This document shows, one piece after another, positions 6,168 to 40,790 of a DNA stretch of 63,891 nucleotides (position 1 is the first letter of the stretch; the number at the start of each line of letters is the position of its first letter). The position numbers and the translations under genes were made by a program. A model generated the notes under the pieces. It made no database searches. It saw only the letters and a program-made list of their open reading frames with translations, and had not been told where the DNA came from. The DNA is from Raillietiella orientalis (taxonomy: Eukaryota): assembly GCA_036172245.1 (NCBI GenBank), contig JAYWIR010000148.1:1-63891 (forward strand). The letters are read 5' to 3'.

Positions 6168-6172
6168 CCATA

Positions 6173-9754: not shown

Positions 9755-9822
9755 TTCCTTCCCGCTCCCTCCCTGATTTTTGTTTATTTCTTGTTTTCTT
9801 TTTGTTTCGTTCCTTCTCCCCT

Positions 9823-15600: not shown

Positions 15601-18270
15601 CCTTGAAGAGGTCCCAATCTTTGAGACTGCGGAGGGTGACGCCTCTCAGGAATTCGCGAAGGTGTTCCTTCGCACCTGAGAGCCGCGTCCAGTCCCCAGG
15701 CAACCGCCACGCTTTGGCCGGGGTCCTTTATCGCGCGGGTATACCTCGGCGATTAACCTGGAATGTTCCGACAGCGTCGACGCAACTTTTCCCCGTTTGC
15801 CGACCCGGAAGCACAGGTCGACATCCAGGAAGAAGTGGTCGATGCTGCGGTCCATTCCCTCCGCGTCCGCCAACAAGTTGGGCGTGCGCATGGCAGCGCA
15901 CAACTCGTTGGCCGTGCGTTCTTGTGCTTCGGGCTCACCTGACAGCAGACGGAGACTAAAGTCCCCAGCTATCAGGTGTGCCTTCCGCACGTTCGTATCG
16001 GCCAGCCAGTCGCGCTTCAGGGTTTCCAGCAACCTGGTACTGTCGCTGTATCCCCCTTTCCCGCTTGGGGCGTACACGTTTGTGACGATCAATTCAATCG
16101 AGTCGGACCAGCTGAGAATTAGCTGACCGACCCGACCGTCGTCATCGGAGCGTACACCTTTCACGGTAGCGTCGATGGCCGGCTTCACGAAATACGCGAA
16201 CCCACAGGTGTTGCGGGCGCCGCATCGCCAATACAGTCGACGCCCCGCGAACGTGTTGATCTCCTGGACGTCTGCCGAGGTGATCACGTGGATCTCCTGC
16301 AGCAGGGCAAGGTCGAACTCACGCAGGGTGTCGGCCGTATCTCGTCTGTTGCCGTCGTCGCGCAGCCCGTTGACGTTCCAGCTGGCCACGCGGATTCGAC
16401 GGCGGCAGGCGAGCCCAGGTGTTATTCCTGGGAAATCGGCTCTGCGGCGTCCGCCACCTGTTGGGGCGGGACGCGAGTTGGGGCAGGAGGGACAGGTGCC
16501 TCGAGCACCTGGTCCCTCTGCTCCATCGGTGACGGGGCGTCGGGCGGGTCACCCTGCGGTGGGGTCGCGCCTACCTGTTGGCCCTCCTCCATACGGGTGG
16601 GCTGTACAGGGTCCGCGCCGGCAAGGAGGACTTCGCCCCCCTGCTCACCCTCCTCCATGGGGGTGGCCTGCTCGACGACTTCCGCGCGTGGGATTTCCCC
16701 CTCCGGGATTCCCACGCTGCCGTCGGCTTCCTGCTTCTTTTCCTCGCTCGTGGAGGGGAGGCGCCTCCTCGACTTTTGGGACTTGCGTCCCGTCTTCCGG
16801 GGGGGTGCCTCCGGAGAGGAGGATGCACTTCCGGCCCCCAGGTCGCACTCACATGCGGGGGCCTTCTTCGGCGGAGCCGGCCTTCGCACGGCCTTGCGTG
16901 AGGGGTTCTCACGCTCGGCCAGCGTGGCCGCGAGCTCCTCCGCCGCCTGCGCGAACGCGGCGTCCTCGCTTTCGGCGCGCGCTTCGCGCGGCTCACCCTC
17001 TGTGCAAACAGAGGGTTCGTCGTCGCGTACCTCGGGCGCGGCGGAAACGGCGAGGGGAGGCTCGTCGCCCTGGTTGGCAGCCTCGGGGACGGCAATCCGT
17101 TTGAGTGCCACCGTGCACTCACGAAGAGTTTTCGAGCGCAAACCGGGTTTATTCGGTTTCGCGCTCTTTTCTCTCTTCGCTCTCGCGGGTTCCACGGGGG
17201 GAACTTTTTTTTCTTTTCTGTCCTTAACCAGCTTCCATCCTTCTTCCTCTCCCGCGTCTTCAGCAAGTTTTCCCTCCGACGCCTAAGTGGGAGGAACAGG
17301 AGATGGCGGCTGGGGCCTGCCAGTTTCGCGATAAGGTCTTTCGACCTTTTTTCCTTTTCTAACCTGTGCCTTTTTGGCAGCAGGTGGCACTGGGGTGGGG
17401 CGTTTGGGGCACACACGACGTAAGTGTCCCTTAACTCCGCACAAGTGGCACTCGATATTCGGGCACCGCTTGCGCAAGTGCCCTACTGCATCGCAGTATC
17501 CACAATAGCGGGGTTTCCCCACGTACCAGAGGTCGACGGATTTCTTTCGACCTCCAGTTTGTGGGGCAAGCCACTTCCCTCATTAACCGTTACACGCGCT
17601 GCGGCCTGGCCTCCGAAATGGCTATTAAATCCTTCGAAAATGGTAGGCTTTGGCCACAACGCGTGTATCTCACCGTACTTACTTAGTGCATTACTCACCG
17701 CAGATCGCGTCATGCAGTTCGTAATGCCGTTTAGATGGACCACTACGGAGCGGTCCATGCTAACCGGCAGGATCTTCCAGCCATCCACATTCAGCGGGGT
17801 GATATTGAGGCGCTGTGCTAAGGCTACGTCTTTGCGGACGACCTCCACGCGTTGCCCCCGCTGAGTACGGAGAGGCCGTCAAGATCCTTTTCGCGTACAG
17901 GAAAATCCTGCAGTGCCCTACTAAAAGCCCGGGCCGTGCGACCATCAAACAGGGGTCCTACCTTATATACCAGAGATGGTTTATATCCGGAGGCCCTGTA
18001 GGCCGCTTGCTGTGCCAGGGTTTCCGCGCTCGGCGCGGAAACCATGACGCTCCACGTCCTCGGCGTTGCCGGGGATGATTCCGGGGCGGACACCCCTGAT
18101 TCTGCAGACTGTGGAGGTGGGCAAGCCTCCCTCACACCTACCTACATCGTGGTGTCCTCAGGTATCGCTGCCATCGGACACCAACGATGTTCCACACGAA
18201 CACACACAAAGAAAAAACCGCTTCCTGTAGACTCGCTCAAGAGCTCAGGAAAAACACGTCCGCTCGCCAA
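12611..18270 (-). mobile_element. Family C element, full length, antisense inside the family B copy
   Basis: ORF1 about 18174 to 16422 (CGYCDAVGHLRKRC, CHLCGVKGHLRRVC); ORF2 16422 to 12828; flanked by gggattttgg (12601-12610) and ggtagttggg (18271-18280). Confidence 0.93.
12828..16422 (-). pseudogene. ORF2 (APE-RT-CCHC) of the family C copy, frameshifted
   Basis: ORF pieces 15646..16389, 15149..15703, 14627..14938, 13982..14413 and 12828..13832 are collinear with family B ORF2. Confidence 0.9.
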
Positions 18271-21137
18271 GGTAGTTGGGGAGGGGCCGCGTAAAGAAGG
18301 TGCTATCTTCAGGCTCGACGTTACGCAAGAACCCCCGACATGCGCAGGTTAGCAGAGTATCGAGCGGGAGCCGAGAGGCAAGCCTGGCAATGCGTGTCGG
18401 CCAGCTTGCTGGATGACCAGGGCCGGGAGCACTCGGTTCCCGCTCAGAAACGCGGGATAGTGAGGAAATTTTACTCCTCCCTGTACGCCAGGGCGCCTCC
18501 GGAGCAGGCTGTCTTACGACTTCTGCTTCCGGAAGGTGCTCGAGCAATCGGGGAGGAGGAGAAAAGGAACCTCTACGAGCCTTTCACGATGGTCGAGATC
18601 ATCTCGGCCACCGGAAAGCTAAAGAGGCGAAAGGCACCACGGGAGGACGGCCTGCCTGCGGAGTTTTATCAAACTTTCGCGGCAGAGCTTACTCCTTTGG
18701 TACATCAGCTCACCTTGCTGATCCGCGAAACAGGTGACGTTCCCACCTCGTTTCGTTCAGCAAAGGTGCGGCTCTTCCCTAAGAGAGGAGACCTAAGGAG
18801 CATGAACAACTGCCGTCCCATCACAATAGTGAATGCGGACGCCAAGTTGCTAGCCAAGCTGTGGGCAGAGCGCCTGGGACGGGTCGCCAACATCTTCATC
18901 AGCTCGGAGCAGACATATGCTGTTCCCGGGCGAGGTATGGAGGCGAACCTGTTCCACGCTTCCACATGGTTAGAGTTCCAACAAGGAAGGAGCATAATAA
19001 GCAGCAGGAATTCCGGTGCGTCCGTCGGTGGAAGACGGGATGGTCGGCAGGGGAAAGGAGCCCTCGCGGTCGCAGTCGATTTGCATAAAGCATTCGATTG
19101 CGTCGATCAGAATCTCCTTTTAAAGCTTCTGGAACGCTTGGGATTCCCGGCCTCATTGCTGGCCTATCTGCGCTCCAGCTGGCGCGACGCGCTTCTCAAG
19201 GTTTTTTAGTGGATCCACCGTGTACGGCGTACCGGTGCGACGCGGCATACGGCAGGGAGACAGCCTCAGCCGCTTGGTCTTCAGCTCCTATTTGTAATGG
19301 GTACTAAGAGCATACAGGAAGACTCTGGCACACCTGCCGTGCGATTGTCCCGGTACGCCTGCGGTTTCGGCGTACGCGGACGATCTCCTGCTGCTGCTGC
19401 CTATTTCCACCCTGGCCTCGGCGGTCGAGGACTTCTTCGACCTGCTGAATCGTGGAACAGGACTGGCGATGAACAGGGCGAAGCCGTCCGTAATGCCAGT
19501 CGGAGCGGCGTGGGGAGGGCAGCAGGACTGGGTCCGTTTGGGGATCCCCACGGTTAGGTACTTCAAGTACCTTGGTGTGCCGTTGGGGGACTACTCCCCT
19601 GCGGAAGCGTGGTCCGGCTGCCTTCAGAAGGCTCAGTCGGCGATCGGCCCATTCCAGGACGGCAGGTTCGGCGGCCTCCCTCCTTCGCCCCTTGCCTTTT
19701 GTTTGCTCCCCCTCAGCGGAGTCAAAGAAGAGGACGAAGGACCACCTGAGGATCGCCCTTTGGAGCAGAGGTAGGCCCCGAGTCCGTCTATCGGACTTGC
19801 GCTACTCTTAGGGTTGGTGGTTTTGGCCTCCTGACGCTGGAGCGGCTGGAGCTTCAGCTCCAGTTCTGAAGTGTTGCCTTGATGGCAAAAAATTGGTGCA
19901 CCGCCTAATAGCTCCCTGCACGTCTCCTCGTCGATCGGGTCACCGGCAATACGAGACTCTCGTCCTACTTTGCACTCCGAAGTCCCTTCTGTCACTAAGG
20001 ACTCCAGCTACAAAGGGTGGCAGGCTCGTGAAGACCAACTCGGAGCAGATCCCCGTACGCCCTGCGAACGGTCCTGCCTGTCTGCAGGGAACCGTACGCA
20101 CGTGGGCGATGACTCCGGAGCAGAGCACGCAACACGAGCGAATAGCTCTGTTCGCGCCGCACGCCCACCGCACGCTCCGAGAAATCATCGAGGAACCCCG
20201 AAGGAGAGAGTGGGCACAAAGAACCTCCCTTGCAGCGGTACTACATACCATGAGGGAACATCTGGACAGTAACGTCGCGGAACAATGGGAGGTTACTTTC
20301 AAGATCGCCAAAAGGGAGAAGATGGGGGACTGAAGAACGGCTCAGCTGACCAACGCTGCGAGCCCGAGGACCACCCCACACAACTCTTGCGCTGAAGCGA
20401 GCTACTGGATGTTCCAAAGAAATATCTGGAGTGGCCCCCGGTGCTCATGGACACGCTCACCCTCTTTATGAAGTTGCAACATTCGGCACTCCTGGTGTTG
20501 CATTGGGGCCTCCTTTGCAACTCTTGCCGACACTACTGGACGCGGGGGAGTGTCAACCCCAATTGTGACAGGTGCGGGGAGAGGTAATACCTCTTCCACC
20601 TGTTAGTGGAATGTGTTGCCCTTTGTCCCTTGGAACGCTTTGCCGCAGCCCTGGGGACTCCCGGAGGCAACTTCAGAGACTCTTTGGGCCCCTTCTTCGT
20701 CCATGATGCCCTGCCTCCAGCGGCCTCGCTTGCAGTCCTGTGCTGCCTTCGCGGGATCGTGGTGGCCTGGAGCAAAGCGAAGGGAGGGTCCAGCAACAGT
20801 GACGCCACCGTGTGCGCCCCCTGCTTCCAGAGGATGGCGACGCTATGGCCCCATCTAAAATCCTACATTCAGCGACAGCTTGCCGGCATCCTCCAGAGGA
20901 TGATGGACCCTTTCAGCAGACTGTGATCCCTTCCCGCTCCCCCCCCAATTTTTGTTTATTTTCTTTGTTTTTCTTTTTTTCGTTTCCCCCCCCTCTGCTG
21001 CCGAGGTCTACCGCACCGGTCTGCACACCGGTAGCCCGGCAAGCTATATCTTTCCACGGCGCTGCTGGACTACTGGTCCAGTCACAGATTGTGTAGGTTT
21101 ATTCGTGAGAATAAACGTCCCTGCGTACCGGGTTTCC

Positions 21138-23743
21138 ATAAAGACTCTGCAGCGTGACGCCTCTCAGGAATTCGCTAAGGTGTTCCTTCGCCATTGAGAG
21201 TCGCGTTTAGTCCCTCGGCAGACGTCACTCCCTAGATGGCGGTCCCTTGTCGCGAAGCCGCATCTCGACAATTAGCCGGGAATGGTCCGACAGCGTCGGA
21301 GCAATCTTCCCCCGTTTGCCGACCCGTGAACGCAGGTCAGCATCAAGGAAGACGTGGCGGATGCTGCGGACTAGTCGCCTCTCACCTGCGAACAAGTTGC
21401 GCGCACGCATGGCGACGCACAACTCGTTCATCGCGTTCACTTGTGTTTCAGGTTCACCTGTTTGCAGGCGGATATTGAAATCTCCCGGTATCAGGAGAAC
21501 CTTTCGCACGTTCGTGTTGGACAGCCAGTCACGCTTCAGGGACTCAAGCAGCCTGGTACGATTGCTGTATTCCTTTTGACTGGTTAGGGCGTACACATTT
21601 GTGTACGCCCACTTGTGAAGATCAGGTCGTTCGAATCGGACCAGCCGAGAATCAGCTGACCGACCCGACCGTCGTCATCGAAGCGCACACCCTTCACGGC
21701 AGCGTCAGTGGCCGGCTTCACGAGGAACGCGACCCCGCAGGTCTTGCGGATGCCGCATTGCCAGAACAGCCGACCCCCAGCGTTCGTCTCGATCTCCTGG
21801 ACGTATGCCGCGGTGATCACGTGGATCTCCTGCAACAGAACGAGGTCGAACTCCCGCAAGATTTCGGCTGTACCTCGCCTGTTACCGTCTTCGCGCAGCC
21901 CGTTGACATTCCAACAGGCCGCGCGAATCCGACAACGACTGGCGAGCCCAGGTGTTACTGATGGGAAGATGGAGAATCGGCGTCCGATACCTGCTGGAGC
22001 GAGACACTAGGTGAAGGAGGAGGGTCAGCTGCTCAATGCACCTGGTCCCCCTCCTTTATAGGTAATGGCGCATCAAGCGGGTCACCCACAGGTGGGGTTG
22101 CGCCTACCTCTTCGCCCTCCTCTATGGGGGTGGCCGGTTCGACGGCTTCCGTGCGTGGGAATTCCTACTTCGAACTTCCCACGCTGGCGACGGCTTCCGT
22201 CTGCTTTTGCTTGCTGATGGAGGGGAGGCGCCTCCTGGTCTTCTGGGACTTGCGTCCCAACTTCCCTGGGGCTGCCTCCGAGGAGGAGGATGTACTTACG
22301 GCTTCCAGTTCTAACTCACATCTGGGGCTTCTTCGCCGGAGCCGGCCTTCGCACGTCCTTGCGCGAGGGGTTCTCACGCTCGGCCAGCGTTGCCGCGAGC
22401 TCCTTCGCCGCCTGCACGAACGCGGCGTCCGAGGCTTCGACCGGCGCGTCGCGCGACTCACCCTCTGTGTAAACAGAGGGTTCGCCGTCGCGAGCCTCGG
22501 ACGCGGCGGAAACGGCGAGGGGAGGTTCGTCGCTCCGGGTGGCAACCTAGGGAACGACGGTTCGTTCCAGTGCCACCGTGCACTCGTGGAGAGTTTTCGT
22601 GCGCTGACCGGGTCTTTTCGGTTTACCGGCCGTCTTGCGCCCTTTCTTCTCCACGGTTGGGAGTTTCTTCGGCTTTCTGGATTCTACAAGCATCCATCCC
22701 TCTTCGCTTTCCACCGTTTCGGAAGATTTATCCTCCGGCTTATGCGCCGGAGGTTGTGGTGTGAGGTTGAGTGAAAAAGGGCCAGCACAAGCTGCCTCTT
22801 TTCCACTTTAGGTCGAGAGACTTTTGACGCGCGTTCCCCCTGCGCTTTTTCGCGGCAGGGAAAACCAGGGTGGGGCGTTTGGGGCACACGCGCAGAACGT
22901 GGCTTCGCTCCCCGCACAAGTGCCATTGTATATTGGGACCCCTTTTTCGTAGGTGCCCCACGGTATTACAATGCCCGTAATACCGGGGATTCCCTACATA
23001 CAACAGGTCGACGCTTTCTTGTGCCACCTGTACTTTGTGGGGAAGCCCACCATTCAACTTCACGGTGACTTGCGCTGCAGCCTGACCACCAAAAAGGCTA
23101 TCGAAGCAGTCGAAAATGGTGGGTTTCGGCCACAGTGCGTGCTCCTCACCGAACTTGCGCAGTTCTTCACCAACCGCTGACCGCCTCAGTCGTCTGGTGA
23201 TGCCGGTCATGTGGACCGCCACAAAGCGGTCCAATGACACTGGCAGGATCTTGCAGCAGTCAAATTTCAGCGGCGCGTGAATCAGACGGTGAGCCAAGGT
23301 AACGTCCTTACACACCACCTCGACCCGCTGCCCGCCGCTGAGGACAGAGAGGCCGTCAAGATCCTTTTCTAGTATATTCGCCTTCTGCAGCGCCCATCTA
23401 AATGCGCGTGCAATCATGCCGTCAAACAAGTTACCTACCTGGTACACGAGCAAAGAATTGTACCCGCAGGCCTTGTATGCGGCCATCTTTGCCATGGCTT
23501 CCGCGCTGGACGCTGCCACCATGGCGCTCCATGTCCTCGGCGTTTCCGGGGATGATTCCGGGGCGGCTGCCCCTGCTCCAGTAGGCTGTGAAGGCGAACT
23601 AGTCTCCCCCACTCCTACCTCCATCGCGGTGCCCTGAGGCATCATGGCCATTGGGCACCGCCGATGTACACAAAACACCACACACAAGAAAAAGCGCTTT
23701 TCTACTATTCTGGGGAGTGAAGGAAAAACACGTCCTCCAAATT
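21138..23743 (-). mobile_element. Family C-like element, 5' part (ORF1 MAMMPQG..., APE)
   Basis: ORF 22740..23687 is an ORF1 homolog; APE LLQEIHV and GDFN; TAACA junction at 21953-21957; GGACGTG at about 23729-23735. Confidence 0.9.
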
Positions 23744-25096
23744 GCCATGGAGGGGGCTGGCTGCAGCGAGACAGCCAGCTCCTCCGCCGCTCGTGCGAAA
23801 CCTACGTCATCGTTGGTGGTGTCGATGACGGACGCCGCCGCCGGGTCGCTCCCCTCGCTGTTGACAGAGTCAACAGTGGGGAGGTCGTCGGTCGCGGCGA
23901 GTTTTTTCTAGAAGCGTTGGGTAACATCGTGCACGCGTTCGACGAGGACGCTGAATTCTTTAATTATCGCGCTACCCTGCTCTTTCTTCTTCTGTTGCTA
24001 GGCGATTTTTTTCCATTCCTCACTCCTTTGATTATTTGGCTTTTGCAACTTGCCATCCAGTCTCCTGGCCGGTTCCCTCAACTTTTTGGCGTTGTTCGCG
24101 GTGGTCTTGGGTGCTGCCTTGGTCTTGGGAGCTGGTGGCGCAGCCTTCGCGGAGCTTTCGTGGCCAGCCTCTTTTGTAGCAATCAGGCCGTTTTTTTACC
24201 GTTTCTCTTGAAACCACCCGCACTACTGCTTTTTAGCACACCTCCTCCGTGTGACGCATTGTTCCGCATACTTGGCACTTCACGTTGGGACCTTTTTTGA
24301 GATGGCCAGACGTATTCCAGTAGCCGCTGTATTTCGGCTTCCCCACATACCATAGGTCGACGGTTTCGCCATCGACCACCAGTTTGTTGGGAAAAGTGCA
24401 GCCGTCCCGAACAGTCTCGCGTGCAGCCGTGACGCGGTGCTGCACCGTCGTGAAGTCCTCAGAAGGACTAACCTTCGACCACTGCGCGTGGACCGTTCCA
24501 TACTCTTCCAACGCGGCGCGAACCTGTTTTTCCGCATCCGCACCGTGACGCCTGATAGGTGTACCACCATGCTGCGTTTCGCCGTAATGGGGAGGAGCCT
24601 GCGCGTTTCCAACATCACGGTTTTTTTGAGTAGACGTTGGGCCAGCTCTGCTTGTTTGCAGATGACCACAACGTACTGATCCCCGCTGCGGATGGTCATA
24701 GCGTTGATCTTCTCTTCCACATCGAAAGCGCGCTTCTTTTTCGAGAAGGCGCGCGCGCTCTCCGAAGAATAAAGATTGCCAACCTTGTAGAACAATGAGG
24801 GGTTATACCCCTCTGCCACATAGGCCGACAATTTCGCAACGGCTGGACGCGATGGCGCCGACACAACGGCGCTCCACGTTCGCGCTGCAGCGGAAATTGA
24901 TTCCCCAGAGGCGATGGAGGGGGGGCGGATGCCCCTCCTCCATCGCCCCTTGGGTCGGCGTTACCGCTGCGCCCTGGCCACCTCTGTTGTACACGTCAGG
25001 CATCACTGCCAGATCGACCACCGAACCACACGATGCTTGCTTTAGGGAAGACTTTCTGGCACGAGGAGAACCGAGAAAACACTTCCGCCCTCGAGC
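23744..25096 (-). mobile_element. Family A element, degraded 5' part (ORF1 to ...SLQPAPS)
   Basis: Family A 5'UTR, EGYNPSLFYKVGNLYS, VDLWYVGKPKY. Confidence 0.88.
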
Positions 25097-27176: not shown

Positions 27177-29214
27177 AAACAGCCGATCCACCGCGATCGA
27201 CTCTATCTCCTGAGCGTTCTCAACGGTGATCACATGTATCTTCTGCAGGAGCGCCAGGTCGAAGTGACGCAGAGTGTGAACCGTATTTCGCCTGTTACCG
27301 TCGTCGCTAAGCCCGTTGACATTCCAATAGGCTGCGCGAAACCGACGGCGACTGGCGAGTCCAGGTACTATTTTTAGGAAAGGGGCAGTGCGGCGTTAGC
27401 CTACTGCTGGTGCGAGACACTAGGTGGAGAAGGAAGCTCAGGTGTTGAAGACACCTGATGCGCCTCCTCCATGGGTAACGCCGCGTCGAGTGGATCAACC
27501 GCTGGGGGAGTCGCGCCTACCTTTTTGCCCTTCTCCATAGGGGCGGGCTGTTCAGAGACGGGGACTGCGGGGAGGACTTTACCCGTCTGCTCACCCTCCT
27601 CAATAAGGGTTGCCGGCTCGACGGCTTCCGAGTGTGAGAGTTCCCTTTTCGGGATTCCCACGCTTCTGCTACCTTCCTGCTTCTCCTCCTCGCTGGTGGA
27701 GGGGAGGCGCCTCCTGGGATCTGAGATTTGCGTCCCGACTGGCTATGGCGCGCCTCCACGAAGGAGGATGAACTTCCGGCCTCCAGGTCGCACTCACCTG
27801 CGGGGGCCTTCTTTGCTGGAGCCGGCCTTCGCACGGACTTACGCGATAGGTTCTCACGCTCGGCCAGCGTTGCCGGCAGCTCCTCCGCCGCCTGCGCGAA
27901 CGCGGCGTCTTCGCTGTCGCTTGGAGCGTCCAGCGGCTCACCTTCTGTGTACAGAAAGGGTTTGCCGTAGCGAACCTCGGGCGCGGCGGAAACGGCGAGG
28001 TTGGGCCCGTCGCTCCGGGTGGCAGCTTCAGGAACAGCAATGCGATCGAGTGCCACGGTGCACTCCCGCAGAGTTTTTAAGCGCTGCCAGGTTTTTTCGT
28101 CTTACCGACGTCTTCTTCACCGCTCTCATGGGTTTCGCGTGGAGCATCTTCTTTTTTCTGGCCTTAACCAGCTGCCAGCCGTCCTGGACTCCCCCGTCTT
28201 CGGTAGGTTTTTTTTCTGACGCCTGTGTGGGAGGAAGGGGGCCTGGCGGCTGCTGCCGGCCAGTATCTCTCTTTGGTCTTTCAATCAATTTTCCACCTTT
28301 TTTTCAGCGCTTTCTTGGCAGCTAGCGACACCGGAGTGGAGCATTTAGGGTATATGAGGCGCACTTGTCTCTTATCCGCGCAGAAATGACACACAATGTT
28401 CGGGCACCTCTTACGAAGGTGCCCTACTGCATTGCAGTAGCCACAAAAGCGGGGTTTCCGCACGTACCAAAGGTGTACTACTTCGTCTAGGACTTCTAGT
28501 TTGTGGGGAAGCCCACCATCCTGCTTTACCGTGAAACGCACTGCGGCCGGTCTCCCAAAAAGGCTTTCGAATGCATTGAAAATCGTGGATTTTGCCGACA
28601 ACGCGTGCACATCTTTGCATTTGTTCAATTGTTTACTAACTGCTGACCTGGTCATGCGGCTAGTGATACCTGTGAGATTGACCAACACGGAGCGTTCCCT
28701 CGTCACTGGTAATATCTTGCGGCCGTCGACGTTCAAAGGGTTGGTGATCAAGCTCTGAGCTAAGGTGATGTTGTTGCACACCACCTCGTCTCCCTGACCT
28801 TCGCTAAGAACCGACAGCCCGTCAAGATCTTGTTTTTCTATTCCGGCGTTTTGCAGCGTCGTTGAGAAGGCTCGTGCGGCTTTGCCATCGAATAAAGGGC
28901 TTATCTAATAAACAAGCTAAGGCCACCTTCCAGCATACTTGTATGCCATCTGCTCTGCCATGGTTTCCGCGCTAGGCGCGGCCACCATGGCGCTGCAGCT
29001 CCTAGCCTTGCGCGGCGAGGGCGATTCCGGGACGGACGCCCCTGATTCTGTAGGCTGTGGGGGTGGGCAAGCCTTACCCACACCAACCTCCATCGTGGTG
29101 TCCTCAGGCATCGCTACCATCGGACACCAACGATGTCCACACATCAAACACACACAAATAAAACCTTCCTAGCAATTCTTTCGGGAGCGCAGAAAAAACA
29201 CGTCCGCTGACCGT
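27177..29214 (-). mobile_element. Family C element, 5' part (ORF1 and first APE motifs)
   Basis: MVAMPEDTT start, CGYCNAVGHLRKRC, WNVNG, LLQKIHV; GGACGTG at about 29199-29205. Confidence 0.9.
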
Positions 29215-30001
29215 GTGATTTGGCGAGGGTCCTCGCAAACATAGGACTTATTTACAGGTGAGCCGGTACGAGAGAACCGCTAATGTCCGTCGCTTGGCCG
29301 AATACAGCGCTGGGGCCGAAAGCCAAGCCTGGTAATCCAGGTCGACCAGCCTGCTGGACGCCCAGGGCAGGGAATGGTTGTCCCCGGCGTCGGAACGGCA
29401 TCTCGTGCGGAGTTATTATTCCTCCCTTTACGCGTGAGCGCCCCCAGATCAAAATGCTTATAAGCGCTTGCTTCCGGATGGTGCCCCGGCAATAGGGGAG
29501 GAGGAGATATTTAGACTTGACGAGCCTTTTACCACCGGAGGAATTCTTTCTGGTATCAACAGGCTCAAGAGGCGAAAATCTCCAAGGGAAGACGGCTTAC
29601 TCGCGGAGTTCTTTGAGAGCATCGCACAAGAGCTCGCTCTCCTGCTGCTTTAGTTGACAAGGGTGATCTGAGATCAAAGCGAAGTTGCCTCCTCGTTTTG
29701 GTCGGGCAGAGTGGGGCTCCTCCCGAAAGGAGAAGTCCTCAGAAAATTGAACTTGCGTCCGATCACGATCGTGAATACGGACGACATGTTGATAGCTGCC
29801 ACCCGGTCACGCCGGGGCGTTTATTAAAAATTCTCTTCGATACGTGGTACAAGGCCCCACTACGGCCAACTCAACTGGACCTGCCGGGTCGCCAGTACGC
29901 AGACCGGCGCGACTCTCCTGGGCAGCGGAAGGGGGTGGGGGAAAAAACAAAAAGAAAAATAAAACATAAAAACAAGAAGATTTGGTAGGGTTGGGGAGGG
30001 A

Positions 30002-33000
30002 TCACTGACCACTGGGAGGAGGGCCCATCCTTCTCAGGATGCCCTCGAGGTCCGTCCGTATAATTACCAGGTGGGGACATCTGGTGACAATCCGCAAGTA
30101 GCGGACTGCAAGTACGACGGCATCCCTGTCGTGGCTCCGTCTTCCGACGTTGCTCCAGCACGTCACAATCCTGCGAACGCAGCAAAGTGCAGCCAGGGTA
30201 GCGGCTGGACGCAGGGCATCATGCACGAACAGAAGCCGAAAAACGTCTCTGGGCATGCTGCCCTCCTGGATCCGTAGGGAGGCACGAAGACGTTCCCACA
30301 GGGGTCGGAGGGCAGCACAATCAACAAGGAGATGTGGGAGGGTTTCCCGTTCCCCACAACTGATGCAGGTAGGATCTACTCGACCCCTGGTCCAGTGGTG
30401 GCGGCGTGCGTTGCAGGGTAGACCATAATGCAACAACAGAAGCGCCGACTCCTGCCACTTTAGGGTGAGGATCCTAGAACCAATTAATACCGGGGGCCAC
30501 TTCAGGTCATCCGGCTGGATGCCGATTAGCTCGCCCCATCTCTGCAGTCCTCTCGGCTGGACACTAGGGGTACTGGCGTATGCCAGTTTACCCGTGGACC
30601 AGCCGCTGATCAACTTCTCCTTGCCTGCGATGCGGCAGGAGACTTGCCACCTAGGCTTGCGGCTGCTGGAGAGCGCCCTCCTCAGGAAGGGCATCGCCGT
30701 AGCTAGGGGGTTGTCTCTGTCCACGTGCTTCTTGCGGGAAACTGGAGTATCTTCCGCAGAGTGCAGCGGGAATAGGCGCCGCGTCGCAGGCAGTTCCACA
30801 TCTCTTCATTCTTTTCATTAATCTTCGCCCACGTGCCAGCTGTCTCCGCCAGCCATGCGGAGAAGTTGGCGGGGCTGCATTCCATCCAACCGTTTTCCTT
30901 TGCCAGGGTTGCCATGCGTCCCAGGAGGAGTATGCATCTCTTGATCTTCGAGCCGCGGCACAGAAGATGAGACGCGAGACCCTCCGTTCCGGATACACGG
31001 CTGGCAAGGAGTCGGGCAGGAACGCACCATGGGGTGCTCCATAACTTCGGTGCGATGGCCAGGGTGCGCCACTGCAGCTGGATTTCTACTCTGTCCACCG
31101 TCAAAAGAGCCAGACCGCTATCTCGACGTGGAGCACACAAGTCCTTCAACTGGACTCGGGGCCTCCCTCTTCCCCAAAGGGCAATCCTCAGGAGGTCCTT
31201 CGTCCTTTTCTTCATGTCTCTGGGGACGGGGCAACAAAAAGTAGGGGGCGGAGGATGGGAGCCGCGAAGGAGTTCAACACCGCGGCCCGTTCCGGAAGTA
31301 GTAACGTGTCTTCCAAGAACGGGCCGATCGCCGTTTCTACGTTTTGGAGGCAGCCGGACCACGCATCGGAAGGGGAGTAATCTTCCAACGGCACACCGAG
31401 GTACTTGAAGCACCTCGCCGAGGGGATCCCCAAACGGACCCAGTTCTGCTGCCCAGCCCACGTCGCACCGACTGGCACCACCGACGACTTCGCCTTGTTA
31501 ACCTGCAGTCCGGTTCCGTGGTTGAGAAGGTCAAAGAAATTTTCGACTGCCTTTGCCAAGGTGGACATCGGCAACAATACCAGATCATCGGCGTACGCTG
31601 CTACGGCGGGCGTGCCGGGGCACGAGCTCGGCAAGGGGGCCAACGTCACCCTATACGCTCTCAGTACCAACTCAAGGTAAGTGCTAAAGAGCAGGTAACT
31701 GAGGCTGTCGCCCTGCTGTATGCCCCGCCGTACCGGCACGCCGTACGCCATTTGAACTCTGAAAGAGATATTCATCAGCGCGCTGCGCCAGCAAGAGCGC
31801 AGATAGGTCAGTAGGGAGGGAGGAAAGCCCATGCGTCCCAGGAGCTCCAGCAGGAGATCCTGGTCCACGCAGTCAAAGGCTTGATGCAGATCGACTGCGA
31901 TCGCTGAGGCTGCCTTCCCCACCTGGGAGTCGTGTCCCTGCATGGCTGACGCCCCCAAAGCGGGGCTGCCAATCCTTCCCTCTTCCTTTTCTTCACTACT
32001 CTGCACATGAAACCATGCGCTCGCGAAGAAGAGGTTGACCTCCATACTTCGCCCGGGAACAGCGTAATTCTGCTCCGGGCTAATTATGGAATTGGCCATT
32101 TGCCCCAGACGCGAAGCCCACAGTCCGGCGATCAACTCGGCGTCCGTGTTCACAATTGTGATCGGACGCCAGTTGCTGAGTTTCCTGAGGTCTCCTCCTT
32201 TCGGAAGGAGCCTCACTCTGGCTGACCGAAACGAGGCGGGCACATGGTCTTCATCTCGGATCAGCCTTGTCAACTCAAGCACCAGGGGTGATAACTCTGC
32301 CGCGAAGCATTGAAATAACTCCGCAGGCAGGCCGTCCTCCCCTGGTGCTTTCCGCCTCTTGAGACTTTTGATACCGGCGAGAATTTCGCCGGTGGTAAAA
32401 GGCTCGTCGAGGCTTTCCTTCTCATCCTCCCCTATTGCCGGGGCACCGTTCGGAAGCAAGCGCCGAGAGGCATCTTGGTCCGGGGGCCCCTGGCGTAAAA
32501 AGAGGAATAATAACGCCGCACGAGGTGCCGTATTCTAGCCGGAGCCGAGTGCTCCCGGCCCTGGTCGTCCAGCAAGCTGGCCGATCCGGATTGCCTGGCT
32601 TGGCGCTCGGCCCCGGCTCGGTACTCTGCCAGGCAACGGACATTGGGGGTCCTCTCGTACCGGCGGGCCTGTAAATAGACCCTATGGTTCCGAGCCTTCT
32701 CCCGAAATCCGGCGGGCAGGCGGTGCAGGGTGAACTCCTCGCAGAACTCGCGGACCGAGTCCTTGAAGAGGTCCCAATCTTTGAGACTGCGGAGGGTGAC
32801 GCCTTTGAGGAATTCGCGAAGGTGTTCCTTCGCATCTGAGATGCGCGTCCAGTCCCCAGGCAACCGCCACGCCCTGGACGGAAGTCCTTTGTCGCGCGGG
32901 CATACCTCCAATATCAATCTGGAATGGTCAGACAGTTCCGACGCAACTTTCCCCGTTTGCCGACCCGCGAGCACAGGTCGACGTCCAGGAAGACGTGGTC

Positions 33001-33581
33001 GATGCTGCTGACCATTTCCGGGAGTTACCCTAACAAGTTGCGCGTGCGCATGGCAGAGCACAACTCGTTAGTCGTCCGTTCCTGTGTGCGTGCCTCACCT
33101 GATAGCAGGCGGAGATTGATGTCTCCCGCTATCAGGTGAGCCACGCGAACGTTCGCTTCCACCAGCGAGTCGTGCTTCAGGCTTTCCAGGAACGCCGCGC
33201 GTTCCCGGTACCTCTTATAACCGCTCGGGGCGTATACCTTTGTTACGACGAGGTCGATCGTGTCGGACCATCTGAGAATCAGCTGGCCGACACGACCGGC
33301 TTCGTCGAAGCGGACGCCCTTCACGGCAGCGTCGACCGCCGGCTTCATGAAAAACTTGACGCCGCAGGTGAATCGGGTGCCGCATTGACACACCAGCCGC
33401 CCCCTGCGATCCTTTCGATCTCCTGGGCGTCCTCCCCGGTGATCACGTGGATCTCCTGCAGGAGTGCCAGGTCGAAGTCACGCAGGGTGGCTGCCGTGTC
33501 CCGTCTGTTGCTGTCGTCGCGCAGCCCGTGGACGTTCAAACATGCCACACGCAATCGACGGCGACAGGCGAGCCCAGGTGT
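30002..33581 (-). pseudogene. ORF2 (APE-RT-CCHC) of the family D copy, frameshifted
   Basis: 415-aa RT piece 31212..32459 with KAPGEDG, NWRPIT, QAFD, YADD; CISCGERETLPHLLVDC. Confidence 0.92.
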
Positions 33582-35320
33582 TATTCCCGGGTAAGTGGCA
33601 ATGGGGCTCCCGCCACCTGGTCGGTCGGGACGGATGGAGGCATAGGGGAACCGCCCAGCGGTTCTCCCACCTCCATGGGGGCCCATTCCTCGGCGGACCG
33701 GAACGATTGAAGGGAGCATGCTTCACGCACCTGCTTCCCCTCTTCCATGGGGGCCGATTCCTCGGCTGCGTTGGACGGCAGGGGGAGCGGTTCTCAGCTG
33801 TCTTCTCGCCCTCTTCCATGACCATCTCCTCCGCAGGCTCCACCGGTGGAAGGGGGAGGCAATGCCCTACCTGCTCCCCCTCCTCCATGGGGGTGGCCGG
33901 CTGCTTGGTGGCGGAGGATGGGAAAATTCCTCCCTCCGTTCCCACGCTGCCGGCTTCCCCCTCGGCTGCCGCTGCGTCCCCCTCGCTCTTCGTCGGGATG
34001 CGCCTCTTGGGATTCTTGGACTTCCGTCCAGTCTTCTTCGGAGGCGCCTCCGTGGAGGAGAACGCACTTCCGGCGTCCGGGTCGTGGTCACCTGTCGGAG
34101 GTGCCTTGGTCGCGGCCGGCCTTCGCAAGGCCTTGCGCGCGCCGTTCTAACGGTCGGCGAGTTCGGCCGCGAGCTCTTCCGCCGCCTGCTGGAAGGCGGC
34201 CTCGTCGATCGCGGCGAGCGCGTCGCGCGGTCCCCCCTCTGTTCGCACAGAGGGTTCGCCTTCCGTGATCGCGTTATCGTCGGCGTCGACTCGGGGGATA
34301 TCTCCCCCGGTGGCGGTCTCGGGTACCTCCAGACGCTCCAAAGCGACCGAACATTCGCGGATCAACGCGCGACGTTGTCTCCTATTTAAAGGAGACGTCG
34401 CGGGTTCCGCTGTCGACCCTTCGGTTTTCTTTGGTTTCTTAGCTTTAGGCTTCGCCTTCTGCCAGCCTTTGCTCTTTTCAGCGTCGTCGGTAGATTCCAC
34501 GACCGGCGTTGGCTGCACGGGCTCGGGCTCCGGATGTGGGTTCTGCCTCACGGGTGCCTTCGCAGGGTTTTCCGTAGCCTCCGCGCGTTTCCCTTTGGCC
34601 TTTTTCAAGGCAGCGGGAGCCGGGGTTTCGCGCTTCGGGCACACTTTGCAAAGGTGGCCCTTTTCTCCACAGTGGAAACACTGGATGTGAGGGCACCGCT
34701 TTTTCAGGTGCCCTGTGGCATCACAGTGTTCACAGTACTTGGGCTTGCCCACGTACCAGACGTCGACGGTCTCGTTGCCGACGTCTAGTTTGTGGGGTAG
34801 CCCTCCGTTTTCGTGGACGGTTACACGCGCACCAGCCATGCCAGTAAACAGTCTTCCGTAACTTTGGAAGACGTTGGTCTTGGGCCATAGCGCGTGAACC
34901 GTTCCGTATTTTCCGAGTTCCTCCTGTACGTCGGCTTTCGACATGCGGAGGGTGACTCCCGTGAGGTGCGTCACCACGGAGCGATCCTTCGTTACCGGGA
35001 AAACCTTCCGGCCTTCCAGTGTGATTGGCGCATTCAGGAGGTGTTGAGCAAGGCTCGCATTTCTGCAAGTCAGCTCCACCCGCTAACCACCACTCAACAC
35101 GGAAAGACCTTCCAGGTCTTCCTCTTTTACGTTCAACCGCTGCAACTCCCTTCCGAAGTTGCAAGCGGTGTTCCCGACAAACAGATTGCCTACCTTGTAT
35201 ATCAGGGACGGCTTGTATCCCTGCTCCAGGTAGGCTTTTTGCTCGGCGAGGGCTGCAGGAGATGGGGCTGTAGCCACTGAACTCCAGGTCTTCGGCGATG
35301 CCGAAGACGCATTCGAGGGT

Positions 35321-35497
35321 GCAGGTGCCCCCTTTTTCAAGGAGGCGGTTGCGCCCTTTTTCAGGGTTGCGGTTGTCCCCTTTTTTCAAGGGGGCGGTTG
35401 CACCCTGTTCCAGCGGGGCTTTTGCCCCCTTTTTCAAGGGGGCCTTTGCCCTCGTTTCCGAGGCGGCGGTTGCCCCTTTTTCAGGGGTGCGGCTGCC
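35321..35497 (-). repeat. About 24-bp coding minisatellite (about 7 imperfect units, GATAPLKK-like) in the ORF1 N-terminus
   Basis: Recurring gcggttgcccctttttcaaggg units. Confidence 0.8.
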
Positions 35498-38059
35498 GTC
35501 GCCTCCGTGGGGGCAGTTGCCCCCACCTTCGTGGGTTGGGAAGAGGAGCAAGCCTTTCCCCCTCCTATATCCATCGCGGTGTCCTCAGGCATTTCTGCCA
35601 TTGGACACCGCAGATGCTTCACACACAAACACAAAAGAAACCAAACGCTTTACACCAGGCGCGGAAGAGCGCTACAAAAACACGTCCGCACGCCAAGTTG
35701 ATAGCAGGGCTATGGGCTTCGCGTCTGGGGCAGGTGGCAGAATTCATAATTTGCCCGGAGCAGAGTTATGCTGTTCCCGTGCGAAGTATGGATGCCAAGC
35801 TCGTTTTCGAAAGTACGTGAATGCACCTGAAGAGGAGTCAAAAGGACGAAAACGGTAAAAATTCCAACCGTACTTTGGGGCTGCCAGTTGTACATTAAAA
35901 TAATTTCCAAGCAAGGAAGGGATATCCGGTCGAAGAAGGGGGCCCTAGCGCTCCCAGTCGAACTCCAGGAGACGTTCGTTTGCGTGGAGCAGGATCTTTT
36001 GTTGTAGCTCGTGCGTCGCATGGGCTTTCCACCCACTTTGATAACCTACCTGCGCTCCAGCTGTCGCAATGGGATAATTAATGTCTTTTTCAGTAGTCAG
36101 AAGGTGTATGGCGTGTTCGTTCGGCGGGACATAATGCATGGCGACAGTCTCAGTTCCCTGCTCTTTAGCACCTACTTTTAGTTGTTGCTGAGAGCGTAAA
36201 GGGTGAACTTAGCATCCTTGGAGAGCTCGTGCGACGGCACGTCCCCCTCAGCAGCCTTTGCCGACTATCTTCTGCTTCTGATACCTTTGTCCACCCCGGC
36301 GAAGGCGGTCGGAGGTTTCTTCGATCTGCTCAACCGTGGGACAGGACTGCAGGTTAACAAGGCGAAGTCGACGGTGGTCCCAGTCGGTGCGGCGTGGGCA
36401 GGGCAGCAGGACTGGGTCCGTCCGGTGATCCCCACGGCAATGTGCTTCAAGTATCTTGGTGTGTCGTTGGAAGCCTTTTTTTCTGCGGAAGCTGTCTCCA
36501 AAAAGTTGAGACGGCGATCGGCCCGTTCCTGGAAGGCAAGTTTCACTTGCCGGAACGAGGCGCACTTTGGAACGAATTTGCGGCCCTTAAGTTCCGCTTC
36601 TTGCTTTTTGTTTGCCCTTCCACTGTAGAATGCAAGAAGCGGATAAAGGACTTACTCCGCGTCGCGCTTTGGGGCAAGGGGAGGCCACGAGTCTCTCTGA
36701 AGGACTTGTGCACTGCGCGTCGGGACGGCAGTCTCAGCATCCTGACGCTGGAGAACGTGTAAATCCAGCTGCGGTGGCGAACCTTTTTCATCGCAGTAAA
36801 GATGTGGATCACCCTTCGGTTCATTCCGGCCCGCCTCCTCTCCAGGCGTGTGTCCCTGTGCGAAGGACTCGCGTCTTTTCTCCTGTGCCCCTGCCGGAAG
36901 ATCCGTAGATGCTGCCTACTGCTCGTGCGCTTGGCAACCCTGGCGAAGGAGAACAGCTGGATGATTCGTGTCCCCGACAACTCCTCCGCCTGGATGGAGG
37001 AGACTGCTGGCACCTGCGCTAAGCAAAACCCGAGCAGTAATGATCCGATGAACTACCTGCTTATCGGCCTATACGCTCTCTGCAAAATGCGAGACATACT
37101 TGAATTTCTTGCAAGACGCACGTGGGCGGATGCGATCTCCCTTGCTACGGCGATGATCTACCTCCGGAGGGCGCTTCACGCCCGTCATAAGCCGAGGTTG
37201 CAAGTTTCCTACCGAATCGCAGGCACGGAGGTGATCAGCGGCTGGAAAACAGGAGGACTGGCAAACGCCAAGATCCCGTGCGTTGAGCCGCGAAGACTGA
37301 AGAAATGGAAAGAGCTGCTCGCCATCCCCATGAATGTGCTGAAGTGGCCCTCGGTGCTTCAAGAATCCAGGATCTTGCCCCTTAAGTGGCAAGATTTGGC
37401 GTTGCTGCTGTTGCATTGGGGTTTACACTGCAACGCACGCCGCTTCTATTAGACAAGGGGAGCTATGGATTCTAAGTGTGCTAGGTGCGGAGAACAAGAA
37501 TCGCTCTTTCAATTTATCGTGAACTTTTCTACACTCCGTTCTCTTTGGGAACGGTTCGGAACAACCGTCGGGCTCACTACGGGCAGTACACCTAGAGACG
37601 TTCTCCGGTCCCTCTTCGTGAAAGACGCCATGCTGCTAGCCGCAGCCCTCGCAGCCTTGTGCTGCGTCCGAGGCATCGTGGTGGCCTGGAGTGACACCAA
37701 GAACGAAGGACTGAATCCAAACGCGTTGAATGTCATCCCATATGCCCAACGCTCCATGCGGAGAGCTTGTGGATGGCCCCAACTTTGGAATATAAGGATG
37801 AACCTCGGGGGCATCCTTCAAAGGATGGACCCTCCTCACAGCAAGCAGTGATTTTTTTCTCGCCCTCCAAGTTGTTTTGCTTGTTTATTTTTATTTTTAT
37901 TTTTGTTTTATCCCCATCCCTTTTCGCTGCTGAGGTACGCTACGCCGGGTTGCGTCCCGGCGTCCCGACAGGTCCCGTGCATATAGCCGTGAGCAAGGCT
38001 TCGTACCGCGGCTGTAGATTTTTCTCGAATAAACGTCTCGGGCGTACCTCGGTGACAAC

Positions 38060-40790
38060 GCCGAAACCCGGCGTAAGACGTTCCAGGGGAAACTGGTTGC
38101 AAAACTTGCGGACTGAGCACTTCATTTCGTCTCAGCCCGCGAGCTTCTCAAGATGAACTCCTCTCAGGAAGGCGCGCAGATGTACCACCGTTCCTGCGAG
38201 TCGCAAACAGTGCCCTGGCAGACGTCATGTTTTCAAGGGACGGCCCTTATTTCGCGGATTTAACTCGAGCGTGAGCCGTGGATGGTCGGACAGCTATGCT
38301 GGGAGCGTTCCTCGAGTTCCCATCCGCGTGCACAGGTGGTTGTCGAGGAACATGTGGTCGATGTTCCGACCTCTCCCTGCATCACCGGCCAAGAGGTTGC
38401 GCGCATTCACTACTGCAAACAACTCGTTGACCAGTTGTGCTCGTCTGTTAAGGACACCTGCCAGTAGGCGGAGAATGAAATCGCCTGCAATGAGGTGCCC
38501 CCTCCGTAAGCCAGCTTCAGCTAGTCAGTCTCGCTGCAGGGATTCGAAAAACGCAGTTGGTTCTTCGGCTTTGTGCTTGCTCACTGGTGCGTACAAGTTC
38601 GTCATCACAAGTTCGATCGAATCGGACCACTTGAGAACAAGTTGTCTAACTCGACCGTCCCCGTCAAACCGAGCGCTTCGCAGTGAGTTGTCGACGGCCG
38701 GCTTCAGCAGATAGGCCACTTTGAAGAAGAAATCTGTTCCGTTCCTCCACAGTAACCGCCATTCTGTGATTCTTTCGAAATCCTGGTCTGCTTCTGCTGT
38801 GAGCATGTGAGTCTCTTGTAGTAGCGCCAGTCGAAGTCTCGCAGAATGGCGGCTTCGTCTCGCCTCTTCCCGTCGCTGCTCAACTCGTTGACGTTCTAAG
38901 ATGTTAGTCGCAAGCGGCGAGAGGAGGCGAGTCCACGCAATGGTGTTGTTATGGTGGGGTGGAGGAAACCGCCTCCTGTTCAGAAGACCGGTGGTCCGGG
39001 TCCATGTCGTTGGAGTGTTCAGGAGCATCGCTCACTCCGTCGACCGTGGACTGTGTTAACAGTTGGTAAAGGATGCTCTCAGGCACGAAGTCGCATTGTG
39101 CAACGCACATGGACTCTTCCTCGCTGTCAGATGCCATTTCGACCTCTTCCTGAGAGGTGAAAGCACGCCTACGAGCTCCTGTTGCATTTCTATGTTCTCT
39201 TTTTGGTAAGCCAACGGAGGGCGAGTTCCCGCTTTCGGCGTAAGACTCGGAGGTTTCCGGGTCTTTTGCCGTAGCCGGGCGTCGAACGGCCTTCTTCCCG
39301 GCCTTCACTGACTAACTCAAGAAGGCAGCCAACTCTTCCGCGGCTTGCGGGAAGCTTGCATCCGAGATGCGTTTCACCTCATCACGGATTTCGCCGCCTG
39401 TTGGCGTGTCCGGTGACGTAACAACCGATTCGATAGCGGCAACCGGCGCTCCATCGTTCGGCACAGCCGCAGCTGAGCTTTCGCTCGCCGCTACAACGCT
39501 TCCAGTTAACAAGACTGGAACAACAGTATCGATCGCGGCAGCGTGCACCGCGCTATCGATGGCGACCGTAGCGATTTCGCCATACGGGGCCGGAACCGCT
39601 TTATCAATCGACGCCGCAGCTGTAGTATCGGTCGTTGGCTTGCTGGTTGAAGTCTTCGCGGGAACGCGATCGATGTGTACGATGGAACGGCGGACGGTTT
39701 CTTCCACCACTTTCACCGTATTCTTAGGGACCTTACCTTTCCCCTTGCTTTCCTTCTTCACAGACTGCCAACTGTTTTCGGCAAGTGTTTCGCCTTTCTC
39801 CGGCTTTAGTTCCACAGGCGTCCATTTCTCTCCTGGTTGGGAGGTTTTACCAGATGGGGGATCCTGTTTGTCTGGCTCCTGTGGCGACTCTGCTCTCTTG
39901 TTACCAACAGGAGTAGACGCAAAACGAAGAGGGCACAGCTTTCTCACGTGGCCCTTGTTCTCGCAGCGAAGACACAGGATGTTGGGGAGTCTCCCTTTAA
40001 GGTGCCCGGTGGTCTCGCAGTTACCGCAAAATTTGGGTTTCCCTATGTACCACAGATCGACGATTCCTATGTACCAGAGACCACAGTCGGTGGGGTAAAC
40101 CACTATCCTCGCTGGCTGTCACACGCGCGGCGGCATAGCTACTGATAGCGCTAGTATACCCCTGGGTGTTCTGCTGTGCCCACAGCGCGTGATCGGTCCC
40201 GTATTTCTCCAATTAGGCTCGAACGGCGTTCTTTGCCATTCTCATCGTCACCCCGGTAACGTAGATGACGATCGATTTGTCGGCAGTAAACAAGAAGATC
40301 CTTCTCCCGTTCACGGTCACCGGGCATCTCAGCAACTGATGAGTCATTCCTGCAGTTCTGCAGTTCAGCTCGACTAGCTGACCGCCACTGCGAACAGAAA
40401 GGCCAAGAACTTCTTCTTCCGGCACATTCAGTTTTTAAAATTCCGCGGCAAACGTTCTCAACATCGCGGGAGAATAAAGCCCACATACCTTATACAGTAG
40501 GGCCGGGTTGTATCCGTGAGACTCATAGGCCCTTTGTTCCTCGCATGGTGGCGGCGCGGGAGCCGCCACCACCGCACTCCAAGCCCTCGCCCAAGCAGGG
40601 GAAGGAACTCTGGGGGAGATGGCCCCCACATCCATGAGCTGAGGGGACGAGGCACGCACGTCCCCCTTTTCCGCACTGGCGGTGTCCTCAGGCATTTCTG
40701 CCTTCAAAACACCGCCCAAACACCACACAACCTACAAACTCGCGCTAAAACGCAGAAGAAGCAAAAGAAACACGTCTGCCGTCACGGCGG
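38060..40790 (-). mobile_element. Family X element, 5' part (ORF1 MPEDTASAEK..., APE, linker to PGFG)
   Basis: CGNCETTGHLKGR, CLRCENKGHVRKLC, LLQETH, NLYAP, GDF; AGACGTG at about 40771-40777. Confidence 0.88.

Follow-up and report, generated by a model that had tools for sequence, protein, structure and literature searches.

Sister LINE lineages with and without an ORF2 AUG in a nested retrotransposon array of Raillietiella orientalis, and a putative stop-coupled restart of translation

The translation of the second open reading frame (ORF2) of bicistronic long interspersed nuclear elements (LINEs) is described in reviews as still unsettled, and the passages that treat it offer only two direct models. 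In SART1, a telomeric retrotransposon of Bombyx mori without long terminal repeats (non-LTR), ORF1 and ORF2 are coupled through an overlapping UAAUG that needs a downstream RNA structure (Kojima, Matsumoto and Fujiwara 2005, as reported in reviews). In human LINE-1 (L1), engineered constructs revealed an unconventional, AUG-independent termination and reinitiation in which the AUG of ORF2 is dispensable (Alisch et al. 2006, as reported in reviews). Here, we analysed a 63,891-nucleotide stretch of the Raillietiella orientalis genome (GenBank assembly GCA_036172245.1, contig JAYWIR010000148.1, positions 1–63,891; hereafter the window), which holds a nest of LINEs that includes one clade without an ATG at the ORF1–ORF2 junction. 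The original prediction for this locus, made from the sequence, had treated both the UAAUG coupling of SART1 and the tolerance of L1 for a non-AUG codon as established, and the review passages bear this out.

Two further systems are relevant to a restart at or near a stop codon. In the termination upstream ribosome-binding site (TURBS) systems of caliciviruses and of influenza B BM2, near-cognate restart codons are reported to work at reduced efficiency and with Met-tRNAi. In the mechanism named START, a stable hairpin located shortly downstream can fix a ribosomal subunit over a non-AUG codon (Kozak 1990, as cited in the later study; Tidu et al. 2024, PMC11165317).

Bicistronic elements and their ORF1–ORF2 junctions

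Self-comparison of the window revealed nested copies of one element group, 5.5–5.9 kb in length and with 65–94% mutual identity, which lie on both strands and are inserted into one another. The elements have an ORF1 of ~550 codons, followed by an ORF2 that carries an N-terminal apurinic/apyrimidinic endonuclease (APE) domain and a reverse transcriptase (RT) domain. The endonuclease was recognised by Pfam PF03372 (Exo_endo_phos) in copy A1 (E = 3e-16, 6077–7594) and in copy C1 (E = 5.9e-09, 15646–16548, minus strand), and PF00078 (RVT_1) was found downstream of it in copy D (E = 1.8e-18, 31212–32534, minus strand). A Pfam search with ORF1 gave no match. The insertions carry target-site duplications and no LTRs. 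Because APE and RT domains follow ORF1, the elements are classed, on these domains, as non-LTR retrotransposons of the APE type that have two ORFs; their nearest named matches are proteins of ~30% identity from turtle, fish and amphioxus. Three copies in the window are full length (A1, C1 and D; Table 1). C1 has accumulated two frameshifts and five in-frame stops in the ~1170 codons of its ORF2, as well as two frameshifts and one stop in ORF1.

Junctions were located across the whole window with a profile built from junction sequences and were then aligned, yielding 11 in all. TAATG is present in four copies (A1, A2, B1 and B2), each followed by CCGGGR ATC, and TAACA in another four (C1, C2, D and X), followed in C1, C2 and D by CCTGGGCTCGCC; two further copies have an ATA codon at the start-codon position and one has GTA. 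The alignment confirmed the positions originally predicted for all of the TAATG and TAACA junctions, as well as for the TAGTA and TAATA junctions of two degraded copies, and added an eleventh copy (g59) that had gone unnoticed. The stop of ORF1 shares bases with the first codon of the ORF2 frame, and ORF2 lies in frame −1 with respect to its predecessor. As had been proposed, the ACA codon keeps the frame of the endonuclease N-terminus, which in C1 reads TPGLACRRRIRVASWNVNGL. An ATG is thus found at the junction in none of the seven copies outside the A and B families, while the third base of the codon is A in all seven. In 9 of the 11 copies, the stop falls in one and the same column of the alignment despite insertions and deletions in the ORF1 tail upstream of it, and the last sense codons of ORF1 vary (GAA, CAG, CCA). 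One codon upstream of the ACA position, an AUA that overlaps the stop (AUAA) is present in five of the seven ATG-less copies.

In the open stretch upstream of the junction, no in-frame ATG was found in C1 (42 codons), C2 (17 codons) or X (10 codons), whereas D contains two, at −35 and −46 codons, that are private to it; the claim that no Met precedes the endonuclease motif consequently stands for the first three copies and fails for D. The ORF2 frame is open for 10–72 codons upstream of the junction, and by our estimate a chance open stretch at 60% GC averages ~31 codons, so that the observed lengths are about those expected by chance. In C1, the first downstream Met lies ~180 codons into the frame, past the endonuclease motifs WNVNG and LLQE, and distant ORF2 homologues begin 4–9 residues before the equivalent N-x-x-G motif. 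Because the clade shares no upstream ATG, its first Met lies so far downstream and its homologues begin near N-x-x-G, the ATG-less copies leave no room for a conventional ORF2 start. Codons 2–9 (PG[IL]A[SC]RRR; PGLACRRR) hold their amino acids across clades while their third bases vary, as in CCG/CCT and GGA/GGG, which argues that decoding begins at or before the codon after ACA.

The B family differs in the position of its ORF1 stop. A 3-nt insertion creates an earlier in-frame stop at 44646–44648 on the plus strand, with the matching site of B1 at ~474–476 on the minus strand, and the B ORF1 thereby ends 15 nt upstream of TAATG (CCT TAA TCT TCC CAG CAG TAA TG).

Table 1 Coordinates of junctions, predicted hairpins and full-length elements in the window.
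Feature	Position	Strand	Details
A1 junction, TAATG	6171..6175	+	stop/start overlap
A2 junction, TAATG	11721..11725	+	from junction alignment
B1 junction, TAATG	457..461	-	from junction alignment
B2 junction, TAATG	44661..44665	+	from junction alignment
C1 junction, TAACA	16420..16424	-	ORF1 TAA overlaps ACA at the position of the A/B ATG
C2 junction, TAACA	21953..21957	-	from junction alignment
D junction, TAACA	33579..33583	-	from junction alignment
X junction, TAACA	38947..38951	-	followed by a 9-nt insertion relative to C/D
g27 junction, TAGTA	27366..27370	-	GTA at start-codon position; from junction alignment
g58 junction, TAATA	58911..58915	+	ATA at start-codon position; heavily decayed fragment; from junction alignment
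g59 junction, GATATATAC	~59577..59585	-	stop lost; ATA at start-codon position
A1 predicted downstream hairpin	6183..6253	+	same register as C1
C1 predicted downstream hairpin	16342..16412	-	outer arms 16397-16412 and 16342-16357
C2 predicted downstream hairpin	21875..21945	-	-49.6 kcal/mol, z -7.16
D predicted downstream hairpin	33501..33571	-	weakest; z -0.76 (dinucleotide shuffles), -1.19 (synonymous resampling)
A1, full-length ATG-bearing element	4415..9966	+	ORF2 of 1169 codons in one frame, 6 in-frame stops, no frameshift
C1, full-length ATG-less element	12612..18275	-	5664 nt; inside A2, target duplication ~6 bp
D, full-length ATG-less element	29797..~35697	-	inside copy E, target duplication GTTGATAGC

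Ancestry and selection in the ATG-less clade

A maximum-likelihood tree built from 825 nt around the junction of the 11 copies has the topology (A,B) versus (X,(D,g58,(C1,(C2,g27,g59)))), with support of 100/99 for both main clades. On this tree, the third base of the junction codon changed once, from G to A at the base of the non-A/B clade, while the second base changed four times between C and T. Because the third-base change is basal, all of the divergence among X, D, C1 and C2 postdates the loss of the ATG. The TAACA copies have their junction by common descent and not through independent events, and asking whether TAACA occurs more often than by chance is for that reason not a useful test; the useful question is whether the ATG-less ancestor was functional.

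The divergence that followed the loss carries the imprint of coding selection. Over ~1165 codons, C1 and D differ at codon positions 1, 2 and 3 with frequencies of 0.188, 0.134 and 0.323, respectively (chi-square p = 3e-29). The Nei–Gojobori ratio of nonsynonymous to synonymous divergence (dN/dS) in ORF2 is 0.33 for C1–D (1146 codons), 0.34 for C1–C2 (260 codons) and 0.36 for C1–X (192 codons), whereas reading the C1–D alignment out of frame yields 1.04 in one wrong frame and 1.67 in the other. As a further control, the 5′ part of A1 versus A2, which is 6% divergent, shows a dN/dS of 0.85 and a flat distribution across codon positions. Similarly, the ORF1 ratios are 0.35 for C1–C2, 0.34 for C1–g27, 0.38 for C1–D and 0.58 for C1–g59. 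The observed/expected ratio of CpG is 0.94–1.0 in the elements and 0.86 in the background, and with values near 1 a CpG effect does not lie behind the third-position excess. Decay of an ACG codon to ACA through CpG deamination was rejected as well, given these ratios and the fact that the C does not lie in a CpG.

Relatives outside the window were sparse. A HMMER search with the A1 ORF2 N-terminus found two close relatives only, both of them unnamed singleton clusters: P0001, which covers only the RT part (with RT identities of 78% to A1 and 66% to C1), and P0003, a 106-residue metagenome protein (51% identical to A1 and 48% to C1), which is the sole outside relative that covers the junction region. 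An Atlas look-up of P0001 led to generic RT clusters, labelled as diatom and chordate, and was uninformative, and a homologous-protein search with the C1 endonuclease gave no match. Among metagenome contigs, a protein-alignment scan produced 161 pattern matches, none of which was confirmed, and an exact 20-nt probe from the stretch coding for LLQEIHVI hit 23 loci, none of which carried the junction profile beyond the probe or matched the C1 endonuclease in tblastn. P0003 begins MRGIAS..., with a Met at the homologous position. Because of this Met, the ATG is the ancestral state and its loss specific to the clade in the window.

These results suggest that the ATG-less elements were active, with both ORFs under purifying selection, and that they produced full-length insertions. 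This conclusion, which rests on 4–7 related copies in one window, is in our judgement probable, since the low dN/dS postdates the basal loss of the ATG and since C1 and D are full-length copies flanked by target duplications, which sets the clade apart from merely decayed sequence. The description of the AUG-less state as naturally fixed is thus supported for the window itself, where a single change accounts for the A found in all seven copies and ORF2 ratios are 0.33–0.36. Some observations pull the other way. Every copy in the window is broken, with no intact or young ATG-less copy among them; P0003, with its Met, groups with C1 and C2 at a moderate support of 92/84, placing ATG-bearing relatives near the clade; and a dN/dS of ~0.33 includes neutral decay after insertion and cannot date the end of selection. 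Because that decay is included, selection in the active lineages would have been stronger than 0.33 suggests.

A predicted downstream hairpin and the routes to ORF2

RNAalifold applied to seven copies predicted a stem-loop of ~70 nt that begins 9 nt after the ORF1 stop and is found in both the ATG and the ATG-less clades. When folded alone, this segment adopts the hairpin as its minimum-free-energy (MFE) structure in all seven copies, at −31.9 to −49.6 kcal/mol, with z-scores that range from −0.76 to −7.16 and are at or below −2.58 in six of the seven, D giving −0.76. When synonymous codons are redrawn at the frequencies with which the elements use them, the native hairpin is again the more stable fold (7 of 8 copies reach z ≤ −2.47, and D gives −1.19). 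For the outer helix of 14 pairs, compared across 11 copies, 83.8% of cells are paired in the predicted register and 17–69% in slid registers, and the observed pairing, the covariation score and the count of compensatory cells were each reached by 0 of 500 shuffles. One pair of this helix reads C-G in five of the copies and G-C in another five, a swap that requires amino-acid changes on both arms. Against the hairpin, its stability is ordinary for this GC-rich element (the 83-nt segment ranks 238th of 1094 in A1, 89th of 1117 in C1 and 275th of 1164 in D), the D hairpin is not significant, the pairs changed on both sides number 4 compared with 2.8 in shuffles (reached by 118 of 500), and the copies are related, which makes the shuffle control lenient. 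Overall, the predicted structure has moderate support. A smaller hairpin that brackets the stop (CCCAGG...CCUGGG) was rejected as a conserved structure: no more than 4 of the 11 copies have it in their MFE fold, covariation is absent, and its two registers are 66.7% and 62.9% paired, which shuffles equal or nearly so.

The history that we propose would begin with an active ancestral element that lost the G of its AUG once, the codon having since been ACA, AUA or GUA. Its descendants would have held both ORFs under purifying selection and kept producing full-length insertions, and because the loss would have taken place in an active element whose descendants stayed under selection, translation of ORF2 would have had to do without an AUG at the N-terminus or close to it. 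A ribosome finishing ORF1 would halt at the conserved UAA, its leading edge abutting the hairpin, and would then resume in the −1 frame at the overlapping codons. The restart codon could be the near-cognate AUA that overlaps the stop, or no specific codon could be required; the flips of the second base between C and T would fit a codon of weakly constrained identity. Reinitiation, a mechanism that we infer, is favoured over a −1 frameshift because the stop position is kept while the ORF1 tail varies and because the downstream hairpin is kept in both clades.

We regard the chances as evenly balanced that the ATG-less clade used a SART1-like, stop-coupled restart that no longer needed an AUG, a judgement that covers the functional state and the mechanism together. 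The bolder version, that an entire LINE clade in nature gave up the initiation codon of ORF2 and that a ribosome held by the hairpin resumes at overlapping codons, mostly the non-near-cognate ACA, is tentative and on present evidence doubtful. Two features of the junction speak against these proposals: the upstream AUA is missing in C2, which has GUA, and in g59, and ACA differs from AUG at two positions, which takes it outside the near-cognate codons.

The A and B families look like ordinary members of the group in which UAAUG coupling is combined with a downstream structure. Like SART1, the elements in the window are bicistronic APE-type LINEs, the TAATG overlap is present in A1, A2, B1 and B2, and the predicted conserved hairpin 9 nt downstream matches the need of SART1 for structure. 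Unlike SART1, they include the C/D/X clade without an AUG (UAACA in four copies, UAAUA, UAGUA, and one in which the stop is lost) and have neither telomeric repeat targets nor a poly(A) tail; the hairpin is a prediction here, and, as far as the comparison went, the elements are not close kin of SART1. With human L1 they would share, under our proposal, the translation of ORF2 by an unconventional restart in which the AUG is dispensable. However, in L1 a 63-nt spacer separates the ORFs and the natural element retains its AUG, the AUG-independence being known from engineered mutants, whereas here stop and start overlap and the AUG-less state is natural and inherited by a whole clade.

A START-type explanation would dispense with ORF1 termination altogether: a 40S subunit that arrives by internal entry or on a shorter transcript would be stalled by the hairpin over AUA or another near-cognate codon. 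The predicted hairpin lies shortly downstream of a non-AUG codon, as in START, an AUA lies one codon upstream in five of the seven ATG-less copies, and AUA is among the codons that work when START promotes non-AUG initiation (PMC11165317). START, as described there, concerns scanning 43S complexes in 5′ leaders, whereas the codons considered here follow an ORF of ~550 codons. The spacing fits poorly, since the hairpin lies at +11 from ACA/AUG and +14 from AUA while the 2024 study gives an optimum of 20–23 nt and cites 14 nt from earlier work. Initiation independent of termination would also leave the exact stop/start overlap across clades unexplained, and nothing in the data points to an entry site or promoter of the internal kind. 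We therefore consider this explanation unlikely, although it survives better than the others that follow.

The ATG-less copies could instead be dead ends, in which ORF2 was disabled and which either owed their mobilisation in trans to relatives that bear an ATG, such as A/B, or simply decayed. Every copy is degraded, ATG-bearing families lie in the same nest, and P0003, although nearer to C than to A, has a Met, all of which such a history would accommodate. It is nevertheless quite unlikely, because the divergence among the ATG-less copies is biased to synonymous sites (0.33–0.36 in ORF2 and 0.34–0.58 in ORF1, compared with 0.85–1.67 in the controls) and because, the G-to-A loss being one basal event, selection acted after it. 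Independent double changes from ATG to ACA in four copies are very unlikely, and with CpG observed/expected near 1 the route through decay of ACG to ACA has no special rate.

The original prediction had also offered a programmed −1 frameshift near the end of ORF1, which would yield an ORF1–ORF2 fusion, would need no ORF2 start and would make the hairpin a stimulator. The geometry is suggestive, with ORF2 in the −1 frame, a reading frame open upstream of the junction and a stable predicted hairpin just downstream. However, in none of the seven ATG-less copies do the 150 nt upstream of the stop hold a canonical X_XXY_YYZ heptamer in the ORF1 frame, and among all 11 copies only B2 has any. The hairpin begins 9 nt after the stop, so that a slip site at the usual spacing of 5–9 nt would have to include or follow the stop, and the varying last sense codons leave no conserved re-pairing site. 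The upstream open stretches are about what chance would give, and a fusion would not require the conserved stop position. The frameshift thus found no support and is improbable.

Splicing, in which the first ORF1 codons and the AUG they include would be joined to an acceptor immediately upstream of ORF2, is the least credible of these routes and highly improbable: a conserved YUUYCCYAG 7–9 nt before the stop resembles a 3′ splice site, GTRAGG-like donors occur 6–10 codons after the ORF1 ATG, lie at conserved positions ~30–60 nt after it in A1, A2, C1, C2 and g27, and would match the acceptor phase in frame in A1 and A2, but an in-frame match in A has a one in three chance, the YAG at the acceptor column is present in 5 of 11 copies and in only one of the seven ATG-less ones (C1, with C2 shifted by 3 nt), the best C-type donor (GAG/GTAGGT) is in phase 0 and runs straight into TAA, phase-1 donors are not conserved, and no copy in the window lacks ORF1 as a retrotransposed spliced RNA would. 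TURBS-like reinitiation, which shares with these junctions a stop/start overlap (UAAUG or AUGA in TURBS) and a restart after a long ORF, was rejected, as the defining upstream motif 1 (UGGGA), sought as TGGGA within 120 nt upstream, turned up in 1 of the 11 copies (in D, at −86) and the structure here lies downstream, not upstream.

The surrounding nest and the meaning of the junctions

The nest itself has several features that stand apart from the junctions. The elements insert into each other in the antisense orientation at one site where the APE domain ends, between CTGCGGGATTT and GGGGAGGGG (C1-ref ~2720–2745), with breakpoints at 12611/12612, 18275/18276, 4335/4336, 21136/21137, 29208/29209 and 38058/38059 and an intact target in A1 at ~7048–7066. 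The presence of at least five independent breakpoints at one site suggests a sequence-specific self-targeting that builds the nest. A1 (4415–9966) and A2 (9967–12611) lie head to tail without a spacer. The two are 94% identical over the 5′ 2.6 kb, while the 3′ continuation of A2 (18276–21136) is 84.5% identical with a dN/dS of 0.43; because identity and dN/dS to A1 differ between the two parts, the halves of 'A2' may have different histories, for example as a chimera or through gene conversion.

The 3′ ends (9930–9966, 12612–12650 on the minus strand, 29797–29840 on the minus strand, 38020–38058 and 4300–4335) carry neither a poly(A) nor a microsatellite tail. The termini have the form ...AATAAACGYCCCGRG...CCCGGGTGACAA(C), a short GC-rich inverted repeat, and resemble those of 'stringent-type' LINEs, in which the RT recognises a 3′ stem-loop. 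Tandem repeats of 24/48 nt in ~4–8 copies are located in the 5′ part of the D ORF1 region (35312–35524), and 42-nt two-copy repeats in B-type ORF1 regions (2028–2110, 43024–43106 and 62590–62696). A 597-codon open frame runs antisense to the C1 ORF2 at 12733–14526 on the plus strand, and there are several further long antisense frames; these have no Pfam match and most likely just reflect the high GC content. The elements have ~59% GC over most of the window, whereas the 50–58 kb stretch has 42%. This segment (50400–58600), without long ORFs and with a CpG observed/expected ratio of 0.86, probably represents host background that received the nest.

Several families of the CR1, L2 and Jockey types have been described as lacking an ORF2 ATG; a search of the literature for further LINEs without a start codon in ORF2 turned up no pertinent account and did not confirm those cases. 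The junctions reported here are not a new kind of system, being LINE ORF1–ORF2 coupling that has naturally lost its AUG. Their value lies in the natural sister lineages with and without the AUG, together with the evolutionary evidence for continued function of the AUG-less one.

The two sister lineages share the stop position and the predicted downstream hairpin and differ in the presence of the AUG. If the AUG-less lineage did stay functional, AUG-independent restart would be used in nature and not only tolerated in the laboratory, and under the bolder version the clade would be the natural, evolutionarily stable counterpart of the AUG-independence seen in engineered human L1. The UAAUG and UAACA sisters, with the same hairpin, would then form a ready-made minimal pair for determining what a restarting eukaryotic ribosome needs. 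LINE annotation that demands an ORF2 ATG will mislabel such elements as defective.

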